Below are positions 58,675-63,841 of a DNA stretch of 64,000 nt, in pieces. Each line of letters starts with the position of its first letter. The stretch's first letter is position 1. The notes under the pieces are model-generated. The model did no database searches. It was given only the letters and a program-made list of their open reading frames with translations, and was not told the DNA's origin. The translations under genes and the position numbers were made by a program. Origin of the DNA: an uncultured Gemmatimonadales bacterium (GTDB taxonomy: Bacteria; Gemmatimonadota; Gemmatimonadetes; Longimicrobiales; RSA9); contig CAVUKA010000005.1 in NCBI GenBank assembly GCA_963741945.1, forward strand, positions 160,001-224,000, read 5' to 3'.

Positions 58675-59060
58675 GGACGGCGCCCGGGCGCCAGGTCGCT
58701 GATCGCCTCCAGCAGCTGGGCCGGCTCCCACGGCTTGCACAGGTAGCGGTCGGCGCCCGCCTCGAACGCGGCATCGCGGTCGGCGTCTCCGCACTCGGTG
58801 GACACCACCACTACCCGCACGGAACCGAGCCCGAGCTCCGTCCGCAGCCGGCGGATGAAGGTGATGCCATCGAGGCGAGGAAGGTTGACGTCCACGATGC
58901 AGAGGTCCAGGTCGGGCTCGGCCGCGGCCATGTCCAGCCCCTCGATGCCGTCGCCCGCGAAGCGAAGCGACTCCGCCTCGTCGGCCAGCAGCATGCGGTA
59001 GAGGCTCTGCATCATCGGGCTGTCCTCCAGAACCAGGACCCTGCCGAGACGGATGCTCAC
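58671..59060 (-). CDS. cheY: CheY-like response regulator
   Basis: LEDS, DVNLPRLDG, VSTE, KP. Confidence 0.85.
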   Translation of the reverse strand: MSIRLGRVLVLEDSPMMQSLYRMLLADEAESLRFAGDGIEGLDMAAAEPDLDLCIVDVNLPRLDGITFIRRLRTELGLGSVRVVVVSTECGDADRDAAFEAGADRYLCKPWEPAQLLEAISDLAPGRRP

Positions 59061-60682
59061 GCTGCCGCGCTCCCGGCCTGGCGGCCTTGCTTCAGCGCCA
59101 TCACCTGCCGCACGTCCAGCACCAGGATCACCCGGCCGCCAGGACGAACGCTGGCGCCGGAGACGGCCGCTGCCCGCGCGCCGAACGGTGGCAGGTGCTT
59201 GATCAGCAGGTCGCTCTGACCGAGCAGCGCATCCGCGGCGATCACCGCGGTTTCGCGGCCACTCCGCACCACGACCCCGAACGAGCCGCGCGGCTCCTCC
59301 CCTCCCCAGCCGAACAGGCTCGCCAGCCCGATCAGGGGGACCAGGGCACCATCCAGGCGGACCATCTGGCCGGAGCCCACCCGCTCCACGGCCGTCAGCC
59401 TCATCGTGCGGATCACGTCCGTCGCCGGAATGGCCAGCACCTCTCCCCCCGTTTCCAGGACCAGCCCCGGCAACAGCGCCACGGTCAGCGGGAGCCGCAG
59501 GAGGAAGCGCGTGCCCCCTCGATCAGGACGCTCCACGGTGACATCCCCCCGCAGGTCCCGTACGCTCCGGCGGACGACGTCCAGGCCCACGCCCCGGCCG
59601 GAAACGGTGCTGACATCCCGGCGAGTGCTGAAGCCAGACCGGAAGATGAGCTCCACCAGGTCGTCCTCCGGGAGCTCCGTCCCCTCCTCCAGCATTCCCG
59701 CCTCCCCGGCCCTGCGGCGGATCGCGAGGAGATCGAGGCCCTGGCCATCGTCTTCCACCACCACGTGCACCCTGTCCCCTTCCTGTGCCGCGGTCACGCG
59801 GATCGTGCCGTGCCGCGGCTTGCCCGCCCGCTCCCGCACCTCCGGCGCCTGGATGCCATGGTCTATGGCGTTCCGCACCAGGTGCAGGAGTGGCTCTGAC
59901 AGGGCATCCGCGGTGCTCTTGTCCACTTCCGTCCCCTCCCCCTCCACCACCAGTCGCGCCTCCTTGCCCTGCTCTCGCGCCAGCCGACGCACGAGCCCGT
60001 GAAAGCGCGACAGCACACGCGCCATGGGGACCAGGCGCATCCCCATGACCCGATCGCGCACCCCTCGCGCTCTCCGATGCACGCTCTCCACCCGGTCACG
60101 CAACTCTCTGCCCGCCCGGGCCTCCGCCAGCGCGCGCTCCACTGCCGAAAGCTCCCCCATCAGGTCGCCGACTTCGCTCAGCAGCGCATCCAGATTCTCG
60201 AACCGGACACGTATCCGATCCAGCGACACGCCAGTGGCAGAACCGGGACCACCGTCACCCTCCGGCGCCTTCGACCGCGTCGACTCCGCCGGCCGCTCCA
60301 CTTCATCCAGCCGATGGCGCGCCAGCGACAGCCCGCGGAATGCTTCCTCCTGGTCCTCCGTGCCCGCAGACTCCGCCGCCCGACGGAGCGCCGACGCACC
60401 CTCGAACAGTCGCTCCACCATCCGCTCCGGCCACCGCTCGGCCGACGACTTCAGCACGTTCTCCAGCACGTGGACGAAGTCCCGGATCGCGGACAGGCCC
60501 AGCATCCCCGCGTTCCCCTTCAGCGTATGAAGCGCCCGCAGCAGCTCGCTCCGGCCCTCTTCCGGGAGTGATCCTTCCCGCTCGAGACGGATCAGCCCGG
60601 CATCCAGCCGGTCCACCTGGTCCCGGGCTTCATCCCGGAACTCCTCGACAAGCGCGCCAAGGTCGAACGACTCCGCCACCAT
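59057..60682 (-). CDS. cheA: Chemotaxis histidine kinase CheA (no obvious P2)
   Basis: HTLKG, HLVRNAIDHG, DDGQG, GFST, SGRGVGLD, C-terminal CheW domain. Confidence 0.95.
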   Translation of the reverse strand: MVAESFDLGALVEEFRDEARDQVDRLDAGLIRLEREGSLPEEGRSELLRALHTLKGNAGMLGLSAIRDFVHVLENVLKSSAERWPERMVERLFEGASALRRAAESAGTEDQEEAFRGLSLARHRLDEVERPAESTRSKAPEGDGGPGSATGVSLDRIRVRFENLDALLSEVGDLMGELSAVERALAEARAGRELRDRVESVHRRARGVRDRVMGMRLVPMARVLSRFHGLVRRLAREQGKEARLVVEGEGTEVDKSTADALSEPLLHLVRNAIDHGIQAPEVRERAGKPRHGTIRVTAAQEGDRVHVVVEDDGQGLDLLAIRRRAGEAGMLEEGTELPEDDLVELIFRSGFSTRRDVSTVSGRGVGLDVVRRSVRDLRGDVTVERPDRGGTRFLLRLPLTVALLPGLVLETGGEVLAIPATDVIRTMRLTAVERVGSGQMVRLDGALVPLIGLASLFGWGGEEPRGSFGVVVRSGRETAVIAADALLGQSDLLIKHLPPFGARAAAVSGASVRPGGRVILVLDVRQVMALKQGRQAGSAAA

Positions 60683-61321: not shown

Positions 61322-61367
61322 GAAAAGAAGAAGCGCCGCCGGATCTCTCCGGCGGCGCTCCTCTTTC
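61322..61367. terminator. Bidirectional intrinsic terminator
   Basis: Perfect 12-bp stem AGCGCCGCCGGA/TCCGGCGGCGCT; TCTTCTTTT tail on minus, CCTCTTT on plus. Confidence 0.85.
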
Positions 61368-61630
61368 CTGTCGCGATCCTGACGCGATGCCGCAATCGAC
61401 ACCCGCCGGTCTTCGGACAGCTCGCTGCGAATACCTTTCGGCTACGCGCCGATCAGGCGATCGCTTGCCCGTGTCAGGTCGCGGACAGTACTGGCACTTC
61501 TAGACAAGGATCACCTCCTTTTCTGAATGGCACAACGGGCGTTGGCACCAGCGGGCTTCCACCCGCGGTCCCGTAGCCGCGCCCCCTTGGGACGCCGGCC
61601 CTGGGCCCAGTCGCCGGTTCGGGCGACGCC
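61323..61630 (-). ncRNA. Candidate structured small RNA / sORF transcript (about 300 nt)
   Basis: Own promoter and terminator, several hairpins, AAAGGAGGTGATCC, 21-codon ORF 61442..61507. Confidence 0.55.
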
Positions 61631-61633
61631 ACG

Positions 61634-61662
61634 AAGGTAGCGACGATCCGTTTCCTGCACAA
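61634..61662 (-). promoter_or_regulatory. Sigma70-type promoter of candidate sRNA
   Basis: TTGTGC-17 nt-TACCTT. Confidence 0.55.
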
Positions 61663-61754: not shown

Positions 61755-61813
61755 TTGACATCCCGGCCGCGCATCGGCATCTATCTAACCGGGCGGTTTA
61801 ACCATACAGTTAA
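61755..61813 (+). promoter_or_regulatory. Promoter and tandem TetR operator palindromes
   Basis: TTGACA at 61755; overlapping TAACC-N4-GGTTT and TTAACC-N4-AGTTAA just before start. Confidence 0.6.
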
Positions 61814-61817
61814 GAGC

Positions 61818-62444
61818 GTGGACGAACGAGCGACGGAAGAACGGATCCTGAGTGCGGCGAACGCGGTCTTCCTGAAGAGGGGGACGGCAGGGGCGCGCAT
61901 GCAGGAGGTGGCGGACGAGGCGGGCGTGAACAAGGCGCTTCTGCACTACTACTTCGGGAGCAAGGAAGGGCTGGCGCTGGCGGTGTTCCGTCGTGCGCTG
62001 GCGGCGCTGCTGCCGCGGGTGGTGGAGATCCTGTGCTCGGAGGCGCCGCTCGAGGACAAGGTGAGGCGGGTGGTGGCGGTGGAGACCGAGGAGCTGGCGC
62101 GGAGTCCGTTTCTCCCGGGGTACGTGCTGAGCGAGCTGACGCATCATCCGGAGCGGGTGCGTGAGGCGTTCGAGTCCGCGGTGGGGACGAAGGTCGAGGA
62201 GATGGGAGGGCGGGTGCTGGCGTCGCTGGGACGGCAGCTGGAGGAGGAGTCGCGAGCGGGGCGGATGCGGCCGGTCTCGCCGGAGTACCTGGTGCTCAAC
62301 CTGTTCTCGCTGGTGATGTTCCCGTTCGCGGGAGCGCCGCTGCTGCAGGAAATCCTGGGTGTGGGAGAGGAGGGGTACGCCGCGCTTCTGGAAGAGCGGA
62401 AGGAGCGGCTGCCCGAGTTCATCCTGAACGCGATGAGGCCATGA
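61818..62444 (+). CDS. TetR/AcrR family regulator
   Basis: HTH ARMQEVADEAGVNKALLHYYFGSKE. Confidence 0.92.
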   Translation: MDERATEERILSAANAVFLKRGTAGARMQEVADEAGVNKALLHYYFGSKEGLALAVFRRALAALLPRVVEILCSEAPLEDKVRRVVAVETEELARSPFLPGYVLSELTHHPERVREAFESAVGTKVEEMGGRVLASLGRQLEEESRAGRMRPVSPEYLVLNLFSLVMFPFAGAPLLQEILGVGEEGYAALLEERKERLPEFILNAMRP

Positions 62445-63841
62445 GGATCGGGGTGCTGGTTCCAGGACTGCTGGTGAGCTTCGCACCACTGCTGGGGACG
62501 GGGGCCGGCGTGTCGGCGACGCCGGGCCCCCACCCGCAGCGGGCGCCGGCCGCGTCGCCGGACACGGCCGCGCCGCTGTCGCTGGGCGAGGTGGTAGCGT
62601 CGGCGCTGGCGACGCATCCGTCGCTTGCGGGGGCGGAAGCGAGCCTCGATGCGGCGGAAGCGGCCGCGGGGCAGGCGAAGTCGGCGTGGCTGCCCACGGT
62701 GGCGGCGGCTGCGGTCGTGACGCGCTACCAGGAGCCGATGGTGGTGGCGCCGCTGCACGGGTTCGACCCGCGCAATCCGCCGACATTCGACGAGACGCTG
62801 TACCAGGGCCGGGCCACGCTGGACTACACGCTGTTCGATGGTGGCGCGCGGCGCGCGCGCGTCCGTGTGGAGACGAGCGCGGCCTCGGCGGCGAGGGCGG
62901 GTGTGGAAGCGACGACGGAGCAGGTCATTGCCGAAGCGGTCTCGTCCTATCTGGCCGTGCTCACGGCCGAGGAGGTGCTCGCCGCCCATCGGCAACGTGT
63001 GGAGGCGCTGGAAACGGAGCATTCCCGCTCGCAGCTCATGTTCGCGCAGGGGAAAGCGCCGCGCGTGGCGGTCCTTCGCACGGAGGCCGCGCTCAGCAGG
63101 GCGGCGGCGGAGCTGGAATCGGCGGAGGAGCAGCTTCGCCTCGACCGGCGCCGGCTGGCCCGCGTTTCGGGGCTGGAGGCGGCTCGCGTCATGAGTGCCC
63201 CGCTCGTGCCGACGGCGCCGTCGTCGGAGCCATCGCTCGATGCGGATGCGCTGGTGGCGGACGCGCTCGAGCAGAGCCCGCGGGTCACGCAGGCGGAGCG
63301 GCGGGCGGCCGCGGCCCGGACGGGCGTGGCGGCCGCGCGCTCCGCGTTCTTCCCCCGGCTGGCGCTCTCGGGGGCGTACAGCGCGTTCGGGAGCCCGTCG
63401 GCGGAGCTTCAGCCGGAGTGGAACGCCGGAGTGCAGGTGAGCTATCCGATCTTCACGGGCGGCGCGCGGCTGCGTGCCGTGGATCGGGCGGAGGCGGAGG
63501 CGGTGGCCGCGGCGGCGGCGACGGAGACGGTGCGTCGCCAGGTCGCGGATGCGGTGGACCAGTCCGTCGCGGCATACCGGTCGGCGCGGGCGCGGGCGCA
63601 CGCGCTCGACGCGGCCGTGGCGCAGTCGGAGGAAGTGGCGCGCATCGAAGCGCTGGCGCTGGCGCAGGGCGCCGGGGTGCAGACGGATTATCTGCAGGCG
63701 GAGGCGGACCTGCTGTCCGCCCGGGCCTCGCTGGCGGAGGCGAGGCACGCGGTGCTGGAAGCGCGAGTACGGCTGGCGCAGGCGGCGGGTCTCCTGAGCG
63801 TGGACTGGGTGGAGCGAATGACGGAAGGGGTGGAGCCATGA
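62441..63841 (+). CDS. TolC family outer-membrane efflux protein
   Basis: Signal peptide, duplicated OEP repeats (LFDGG, PIFTGG). Confidence 0.88.
   Translation: MRIGVLVPGLLVSFAPLLGTGAGVSATPGPHPQRAPAASPDTAAPLSLGEVVASALATHPSLAGAEASLDAAEAAAGQAKSAWLPTVAAAAVVTRYQEPMVVAPLHGFDPRNPPTFDETLYQGRATLDYTLFDGGARRARVRVETSAASAARAGVEATTEQVIAEAVSSYLAVLTAEEVLAAHRQRVEALETEHSRSQLMFAQGKAPRVAVLRTEAALSRAAAELESAEEQLRLDRRRLARVSGLEAARVMSAPLVPTAPSSEPSLDADALVADALEQSPRVTQAERRAAAARTGVAAARSAFFPRLALSGAYSAFGSPSAELQPEWNAGVQVSYPIFTGGARLRAVDRAEAEAVAAAAATETVRRQVADAVDQSVAAYRSARARAHALDAAVAQSEEVARIEALALAQGAGVQTDYLQAEADLLSARASLAEARHAVLEARVRLAQAAGLLSVDWVERMTEGVEP

Follow-up and report, generated by a model that had tools for sequence, protein, structure and literature searches.

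On the minus strand of a 64,000-nucleotide (nt) stretch of DNA from an uncultured Gemmatimonadales bacterium (contig CAVUKA010000005.1), hereafter called the window, a stand-alone structured RNA is encoded between a convergent DUF302 gene on one side and a divergent TetR gene on the other, the position given by the original prediction. The RNA carries an extended Shine-Dalgarno (SD) sequence that is complementary to the 3′ tail of the 16S ribosomal RNA (rRNA) and is directly followed by a short open reading frame (sORF). Its conservation, its complementarity to the 16S tail, the signature of a translated frame and a covarying helix identify it as a real, conserved RNA gene. By analogy with the rre RNAs of alphaproteobacteria, we consider with moderate confidence that it is a ribosome-docking small mRNA or riboregulator of about 305 nt, whose fold and lifetime would be set at the ribosome. 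All coordinates refer to the whole window and were checked against the sequence, and the features of the RNA lie on the minus strand:

61662-61634, minus strand: putative sigma-70-like promoter, TTGTGC (61662-61657), 17-nt spacer, TACCTT (61639-61634)
61628-61323, minus strand: predicted stand-alone transcription unit of about 305 nt, with an expected start near 61628
61627-61610, minus strand: P1, the 5′-terminal hairpin GUCGCC-CGAACC-GGCGAC, with pairing kept across relatives
61608-61537, minus strand: 5′ junction domain, closed by GGGC (61608-61605) and GCCC (61540-61537)
61600-61576, minus strand: variable hairpin of the 5′ junction
61571-61562 and 61555-61546, minus strand: conserved hairpin of the 5′ junction, GGACCGCGGG with CCCGCUGGUG
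61521-61508, minus strand: extended SD AAAGGAGGUGAUCC (DNA AAAGGAGGTGATCC), a 14-nt perfect complement of the organism's own 16S 3′ tail, in an A-rich linker that is predicted to be single-stranded
61507-61442, minus strand: sORF of 21 codons from UUG (61507-61505) to UAG (61444-61442), peptide MSRSASTVRDLTRASDRLIGA
61488-61473, minus strand: 5′ strand of helix H_A, CUGUCCGCGACCUGAC, inside the sORF (codons 7-12)
61470-61456, minus strand: core GGGCAAGCGAUCGCC, 15 nt, codons R-A-S-D-R, invariant in all 30 BLAST-derived relatives
61453-61438, minus strand: stop-codon hairpin AUCGGC-GCGUA-GCCGA(A), with the stop at the loop
61419-61414, minus strand: candidate pseudoknot strand UGUCCG, partner CGGGCA (61471-61466)
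61388-61384, minus strand: 3′ strand of helix H_B, AUCGC, pairing with GCGAU of the core
61383-61368, minus strand: 3′ strand of H_A, GUCAGGAUCGCGACAG, directly before the terminator
61359-61323, minus strand: intrinsic terminator, 12-bp stem (61359-61332), GAGA loop and UCUUCUUUUCC tail to 61323

The frame of 21 codons opening on TTG and the terminator with its 12-bp stem and U-rich tail were both found where the original prediction had placed them. The terminator is common to the RNA gene and the convergent DUF302 gene, and its stem covaries in relatives. A terminator scan lists this hairpin on the plus strand only; the U-rich tail of the minus strand (TCTTCTTTTCC) was read directly from the sequence. 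The proposed promoter has its hexamers and its spacer at the predicted positions and is weak, with only three of six consensus matches in each hexamer. Its support comes from the relatives, which carry a TTG-17-TA...T arrangement at the same position (for example TTGCGG-17-TAGAGT). For an RNA of 312 nt from this locus, the predicted fold has an energy of −171.3 kcal/mol (z = −6.65), and 0 of 100 shuffled sequences folded as well.

The original prediction had described a 14-nt perfect complement of the 16S rRNA tail, and this was confirmed against the 16S gene of the same genome. The end of that gene reads ...CUGGAUCACCUCCUUUCU, and the complementarity is exactly 14 nt long, ending directly before the UUG. 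The predicted duplex has an energy of −29.9 kcal/mol for the 14-nt SD, compared to −8.7 kcal/mol for GGAGG alone. Allowing up to one mismatch, the 14-mer is found once in the window, where 0.03 matches are expected. The 4.09-Mb genome holds two matches, namely the present locus and the antisense of the 3′ end of the single 16S gene found. The shorter GGAGGTGATCC occurs at 11 sites in the genome, and only at the present one do a start codon and a short frame follow directly. The other 10 sites, considered as further examples, lie inside long open reading frames (ORFs) or lack the sORF layout and were treated as chance matches. In 141 homologues the contiguous complementarity to the 16S tail spans 11-17 nt with a mode of 13-14 nt; 16-17 nt are reached in 7, and the start codon is overlapped in 3. 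A 13-mer of the SD block corresponds to the universal 16S reverse primer.

The general use of SD sequences in this genome was estimated by a crude count, in which GGAG was found within −16 to −5 of 399 of 2148 putative starts, compared to 179 and 155 in control windows. The clear SD peak near −11 rules out that Gemmatimonadota hardly use SD sequences, as is the case in Bacteroidota. SD motifs at only about one fifth of the crudely called starts of this genome (G000) make a moderate use of SD sequences seem likely.

To describe the frame across relatives, 156 loci were collected, 149 of which carry the motif. Two of these were dropped, L086 as a chance match and L060 with a frame shifted by 2, and 147 remain. 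In these 147 of the 149 motif-bearing loci the start codon is in frame, being UUG in 138, GUG in 9 and AUG in none, and its distance from the first G of GGAGG is 11-13 nt. The frame measures 16-23 codons and exactly 20 in 108 loci, and it ends on TAG (69 loci), TGA (46) or TAA (32). Among the 142 unique sequences, the spacer between SD and start changes in single-nucleotide steps (2 nt in 30, 3 nt in 111 and 4 nt in 1). Start and invariant core are 33 nt apart in 125 sequences, 30 nt in 3, 36 nt in 13 and 35 nt in 1; with this single exception, insertions and deletions downstream of the start comprise 3 nt. In the two remaining frames the first stop has no common position and lies anywhere between 0 and more than 60 codons. 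The pattern by which the loci were collected did not include the start, the stop or the insertions and deletions. Because the in-frame start, the frame length, the stop and the 3-nt steps are all conserved, and the start, the stop and the 3-nt steps are not fixed by the search pattern, the sORF is very probably translated, as judged from its evolution.

This bears on the suggestion of the original prediction that the RNA sequesters 30S subunits. An untranslated titrator of 30S subunits or blocker of the anti-SD, acting as a sponge or hibernation factor with an only incidental open frame, would agree with a complementarity far beyond the need of translation. It would also agree with work on the Bradyrhizobium RNA rreB, which is found in the ribosome fraction, co-sediments with 30S and is weakly translated owing to its extended SD and GTG start (PMC5711450). 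A pure sponge, however, has no need of a frame whose phase, length and stop are under selection. Length changes of single nucleotides before the start give way to changes of 3 nt after it, and every sequence reaches its first in-frame stop after 16-23 codons although three different stop codons are used. Moreover, there is one gene copy per genome, and the same report states that overexpression of rreB is without effect on growth and that ribosomes far outnumber the RNA (PMC5711450). We therefore regard simple sequestration as quite unlikely, and this part of the original prediction is not supported as it stood.

The composition of the frame was also examined. The codons just after the start are low in GC (UCU AGU), and TCT, AGA, AGT, ACT, ACA and GCA each supply 1-5% of their own amino acid in a crude set of long ORFs with high GC at third codon positions. 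The observation that the sORF uses codons unusual for this GC-rich genome is therefore correct per codon count. The peptide is polar and rich in serine and arginine, in line with the remark that it is not hydrophobic as typical type I toxins are. A type I toxin mRNA was rejected on the basis of this polar peptide; in addition, the ORF and Rfam scans revealed no antisense feature, with no search aimed at one.

Could the peptide itself be the product? A conventional gene whose product is a functional micropeptide of 20 residues with the motif x(R/W)ASDRxxGx, in which the RNA structure would serve stability and translational control only, could account for the conserved frame, length and stop, for the invariant (R/W)ASDR and for the glycine that is common at position −2 of the peptide. 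The peptides RreB and RreR are likewise regarded as conserved within their own clades (Hahn et al. 2016, RNA Biol 14:1353, PMC5711450). Outside (R/W)ASDR, on the other hand, the peptide varies freely, and codons 7-12 change along with the compensatory substitutions of H_A (VRDLT, CIRGSN, TGSDSA, GGSPV). In the 30 BLAST-derived relatives no position of the ASDR codons changes, third positions included, despite the fact that ACA, GCA and GAU of this region supply only 4-20% of their own amino acid in the genome. Such invariant third positions in rare codons point to a constraint at the RNA level. A scan of the sORF peptide against NCBIfam matched no family. A micropeptide gene of this kind seems rather unlikely to us, and, since the peptide is not conserved outside the codons fixed at the RNA level, the relevant product is unlikely to be the peptide. 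The original prediction had also offered a structured leader controlling a micropeptide; from this, the translated frame very probably stands, and the micropeptide as its purpose is unlikely. As far as can be read from the aligned loci, selection keeps the act and the extent of translation and not the peptide: a non-AUG start, about 20 codons running through helices, and a stop in a hairpin loop.

The RNA structure was assessed in an alignment of 43 sequences picked for diversity (A1) and in pair tables of 135 sequences; two rows of the alignments, L013 (genome G020) and L018 (G017), come from unpublished genomes, and no statement rests on either. Over the 43 sequences, 81.1% of the whole structure is paired, compared to 34-40% with the partners slid, and the covariation score of 0.307 compares with 0.202 in shuffled alignments and was reached by 0 of 500 shuffles. 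In the long-range helix H_A, 88.9% of the cells are paired, and both sides change in 11 of 11 pairs (A1). One of its pairs, for example, is GC in 72, AU in 52 and GU in 9 of the 135 sequences and canonical in 99%. In H_B, 95.3% of the cells are paired, with one-sided changes only (43 sequences). The stop hairpin varies by lineage in its sequence and in the type of stop, and the stop stays in the loop; in fixed columns it is only 54% paired, as the hairpin shifts within the alignment. The small hairpins that the original prediction had seen after the sORF do exist, but they belong to this larger conserved 3′ domain.

At the 5′ end, the P1 stem varies with pairing retained (GUCGCC/GGCGAC, CCGCGCC/GGCGCGG, GUCUCC/GGAGAC). 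In the alignment of all lineages the 5′ domain is conserved rather than covarying. The same holds for its closing helix GGGC/GCCC, which is 81-98% canonical in the 135 sequences. The earlier proposal that GTGGC and GCCAT close this domain was replaced accordingly by the GGGC/GCCC of the family consensus.

The invariant core contains GGGCAA, which could be an 8-nt bulge or a pseudoknot strand, the GCGAU of H_B, and the palindrome GCGAUCGC. The 8-nt palindrome of the core (GCGATCGC) could let two RNA molecules pair. It is presumably the same word as the cyanobacterial HIP1 repeat. For UGUCCG/CGGGCA, 76.6% of the cells are paired with one-sided changes only (43 sequences), and 56-58 column pairs are 89-98% canonical in the 135 sequences. 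The 3′ strand of this pairing is absent from short forms of the RNA, and therefore the pseudoknot stays a candidate. An RNA in which the core (GGGCAA bulge, palindrome and possible pseudoknot) binds a protein, a ligand or a second RNA copy, and in which translation reads out or resets this binding in the manner of a riboswitch or ribonucleoprotein, would explain 15 invariant nucleotides at a junction of several helices whose partner strands show pairing-compatible changes only, and the palindrome could mediate dimerisation. Against it stand the lack of covariation and the missing 3′ strand of the pseudoknot, the lack of a conserved neighbour hinting at a ligand or partner, and the lack of an Rfam aptamer match. 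We consider such a binding core unlikely.

To determine how widely the RNA occurs, the 340-nt region was compared by BLAST with 61 related genomes, including that of the window itself, and matches were obtained in 55. Reading of the match table shows that the best-conserved part, the SD-sORF core (query 140-226), is covered in 54 of the 61; the 55th genome, G054, matches in the terminator only. The extended SD as well as the hairpins, whose loss in relatives had been named as a reason to abandon the RNA, are kept. A scan with the pattern GGAGGTGAT-N25-55-GGGCAAGCGATCG in one genome per species retrieved at least 119 contigs. Among the 80 titles listed, nearly all name Gemmatimonadota, Gemmatimonadales, Gemmatimonadaceae, Longimicrobiales, Longimicrobium or Palauibacter, the exceptions being one Gammaproteobacteria contig, three unlabelled 'bacterium' contigs and one Actinomycetota contig. 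The latter (L086) was rejected as a homologue, as it is a chance match without the layout. The contig titled Gammaproteobacteria (L063, VXNP01000062.1) is an RNA-bearing contig of a metagenome-assembled genome, and its title may result from wrong binning or labelling and not from a second phylum that carries the RNA.

In an even sample of 401 genomes of the phylum, the exact pattern was found in 112, never more than once per genome, and a reversed-pattern control gave 0. By family, the genomes with the exact pattern are distributed as follows:

f1: 5 of 7 genomes
f2: 39 of 70 genomes
f3: 3 of 4 genomes
f4: 43 of 166 genomes
f5: 0 of 93 genomes
f7: 21 of 30 genomes
f6, f8 and f9: 0
f10-f12, families of other classes: 0 of 19 genomes

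The RNA is thus widespread in two orders, Gemmatimonadales and Longimicrobiales, as a single copy per genome. One clade in family f7, which includes records titled Palauibacter (for example G117:C1:136685-136746), has a GUG start and a 21-codon frame beginning MSAGC or MSDG. Family f5 is a large family of the same class, and several of its genomes that lack the RNA are 100% complete. With a relaxed pattern, 4 of 26 f5 genomes match, 3 of them with the canonical core; complete f5 genomes hold another two extended-SD sites, which are located within long ORFs and were treated as chance matches.

The neighbours of the RNA gene vary by lineage, and none is shared by more than 39 of 148 loci. Peptidase M50B, AhpC/TSA, GcvH, PPIase, a CAAX protease and an MBL-fold protein flank subsets of the loci, and no conserved neighbour or operon was found across the 148. 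The RNA gene is free-standing. A cis-acting leader, acting as a ribosome-dependent attenuator of a downstream gene, is therefore very unlikely. The order of promoter, short ORF, alternative-looking helices and terminator does resemble a leader-peptide layout, and a CAAX-protease gene follows on the same strand in 13 loci. In the window and in many other loci, however, the next gene is convergent and shares the terminator, the neighbours are not conserved, and the frame holds no regulatory codon run. A second copy of CUGUCCGC was tried as the alternative partner of the H_A 3′ strand, as in an attenuator-like switch; with 8-84% canonical pairs, this alternative pairing of the freed strand is unsupported.

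Beyond the RNA gene, the TetR-family regulator at 61785-62444 (plus strand) was assigned by NCBIfam hits. By eye, a long ORF at 59057-60682 (minus strand) appears CheA-like, and an ORF at 62441-63841 (plus strand) seems to resemble an outer-membrane efflux protein. None of these three is linked to the RNA in other genomes. In one other Gemmatimonadota genome (G030), a SAM_alpha riboswitch (SAM-II, RF00521; 49.8 bits at a threshold of 36) lies at L004:1200-1277 on the minus strand, a few hundred bases from the copy of the RNA in that genome; Rfam describes this class as alphaproteobacterial.

A weak hint of expression comes from metatranscriptomes. Seven short contigs of relatives (167-266 nt, below 95% identity) were found in 4 runs from 3 studies, with one or two contigs per run. 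The SD-sORF core is covered by them, and even with the unaligned ends included they do not extend beyond the predicted transcript; two of these ends hold the GGACCGCGGG motif of the 5′ domain. Among the sequencing runs searched, none contained RNA of this organism and none held half or more of the words of the stretch, the best being a DNA run at 0.38.

Taken together, these data are consistent with the following course of events, for which 30S binding, weak translation and the coupling of translation to turnover or refolding are inferred from the rreB experiments. The exposed SD would pair with essentially the whole 16S tail (14 bp here and 11-17 bp in the homologues), giving a very tight docking on the 30S subunit. 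Between the duplex end and the non-AUG start, which is UUG or in one clade GUG, there are 0-2 nt, so that strong binding would be combined with a throttled passage from initiation to elongation. Those ribosomes that do initiate would read about 20 codons. The 5′ strands of H_A and H_B are part of the second half of the frame, and a hairpin loop holds the stop, so that each passage of a ribosome would have to unfold the conserved 3′ domain. Since selection appears to keep the act and extent of translation and not the peptide, the fold of the RNA, its lifetime and any activity in trans may be set at the ribosome. A broader and more tentative idea, which we hold to be doubtful but worth stating, is that small mRNAs pairing with the full 16S tail, among them the alphaproteobacterial rre RNAs and the present one, are RNA switches that sense ribosomes and are either ancient or repeatedly invented. 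Free 30S subunits would be their docking site, translation would occur only as far as initiation capacity allows, and the passage of the ribosome would unfold a conserved pseudoknotted 3′ domain to release or destroy a trans-acting surface. If this were true, such a switch would be the cell's direct read-out of idle ribosomes.

Several points weigh against a ribosome-docking small mRNA of the rre type. The loci used for the frame statistics were collected by patterns that fix the SD and the core, and these two are not independent evidence. By reading of the sequences, the changes of plus or minus 3 nt go back to only about 8 independent events. For the (R/W)ASDR codons, constraint on the RNA and constraint on the peptide look alike in the sequence. 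A consensus promoter scan called no promoter at the locus, which makes the promoter weak by this measure. The contigs from RNA libraries are those of relatives only, such libraries may contain DNA, and the contigs cannot show transcript ends. In most f5 genomes the RNA is, judging from the pattern scans, dispensable or diverged. Finally, homology to the alphaproteobacterial rre and CC2171 RNAs and convergence would give the same picture, because the shared SD block is dictated by the 16S rRNA.

In comparison with known RNAs, the original prediction had set the locus apart from tmRNA (transfer-messenger RNA) and other known families. A tmRNA is excluded, as both an SD and a start codon are present at the locus, RF00023 does not match there, and the tmRNA of this genome lies elsewhere (C1:225494-225860, 172.7 bits). 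An Rfam scan of the window and 20 relatives at permissive E-values gave no family at threshold and only sub-threshold matches to CC2171, ctRNA and miRNA-type noise. The best match in the window was CC2171 (RF01867) with 25.9 bits compared to a gathering score of 75; in the relatives this family reached 24.2-32.2 bits in 5 of 20 and gave nothing in 15 of 20. RNAs that serve both as regulator and as message offer another comparison. The rnTrpL/peTrpL RNA of Sinorhizobium is also a small structured RNA translated into a small peptide. SR1/SR1P of Bacillus is a dual-function small structured RNA as well, the peptides of this and the rnTrpL kind ranging from 14 to 40 residues. Such dual-function RNAs and liberated leaders differ from the present RNA in that their ribosome-binding sites are of the usual kind and that they have known base-pairing targets or act as attenuators, and none of the dual-function RNAs is known to be defined by complementarity to the full 16S tail. 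The STAB-SD elements of Gram-positive mRNAs resemble SD sequences and bind 30S, but not to initiate translation at an adjacent frame. They differ in lying in the 5′ untranslated region of long mRNAs and are not known to have a suitably spaced start codon or a conserved sORF.

The similarity to CC2171 deserves a closer look. The consensus of this family begins GAAAGGAGGUGAUCCAGUGUCU, the parts that align are GAAAGGAGGUGAUCCA(G/U)UGUCU and the terminator, and in the Rfam structure the bases directly downstream of the GUG pair, in the layout of H_A, with a strand that immediately precedes the terminator. On the other hand, only the SD-start block and the terminator align, and the internal helices and the 5′ domain do not. 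CC2171 is a Northern-validated small RNA of Caulobacter and Methylorubrum with unknown function (bioRxiv 10.1101/2022.01.24.477521). From its sequence, CC2171 is probably the rre gene of Caulobacter; this is our own view and is stated by neither paper in the text accessible to us.

The closest counterpart is the rre group. In PMC5711450, rreB of Bradyrhizobium is described as a stand-alone mRNA of 165 nt with a 14-codon sORF and a 17-nt perfect complementarity to the 16S 3′ end that includes the G of its GTG start. Exchanging its start codon for a stop makes the RNA more stable. Analogues whose complementarity spans 16-17 nt are given for Caulobacterales, Rhizobiales, Rhodobacterales (rreR, 18 codons) and Rhodospirillales, and the function of the group is unknown (PMC5711450). 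A term search of this paper found neither Gemmatimonadetes nor CC2171. In later literature, with subscription journals and supplements outside the search, nothing was found that resolves the function of rre or places this kind of RNA outside the alphaproteobacteria, and our literature search found no description of small RNAs of Gemmatimonadota. An undescribed RNA, as the original prediction called it, is therefore an apt term for the Gemmatimonadota family but not for the kind, which is known as rre in alphaproteobacteria (PMC5711450).

Compared with rre RNAs, the present RNA is likewise predicted to be a small stand-alone transcript, with a putative promoter and a terminator of its own. Its SD, too, is complementary to practically all of the single-stranded 16S tail, and it adjoins or overlaps a non-AUG start. 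The frame is similarly tiny (14-18 codons in rre and about 20 here), and both groups are conserved within their clade while genomic contexts vary. The published description of rre names a non-ATG start and an sORF under about 20 codons; in the Gemmatimonadota RNA, AUG is found in 0 of 147 loci and the frame has 16-23 codons. In one Gemmatimonadota clade, with the sequence ...GGAGGUGAUC(C/U)AGUGUCU, the complementarity reaches the G of the GUG as it does in rre. Differences lie in the phylum, in the length (about 305 nt here, 165 nt for rreB) and in an additional structured 5′ domain of about 115 nt. The complementarity of 14 nt here falls short of the 16-17 nt, reaching the first base of the start codon, by which rre RNAs were defined, as it does in all but 7 of the 141 homologues (range 11-17 nt), and UUG is used in 138 of 147 loci instead of GUG. 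The peptide is poorly conserved here, and the sORF lies inside a covarying long-range helix and an invariant core.

These similarities and differences matter for how the kind is seen. So far rre has been reported from alphaproteobacteria only. The same logic in an unrelated phylum, namely full 16S-tail pairing, a non-AUG start against the duplex and a tiny frame, argues for a general role at the ribosome and not for an alphaproteobacterial oddity, and Gemmatimonadota gain a gene, non-coding or small-coding, that is phylum-wide. The Gemmatimonadota version is the more informative one, with hundreds of diverged copies, a 15-nt invariant core and helix changes that rewrite the peptide. These natural compensatory mutants separate the importance of translation from that of the peptide, which the alphaproteobacterial data could not do. 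Judged from sequence and layout, the RNA described here brings the rre type of small mRNA to a second phylum, in a variant that is longer and has more structure.

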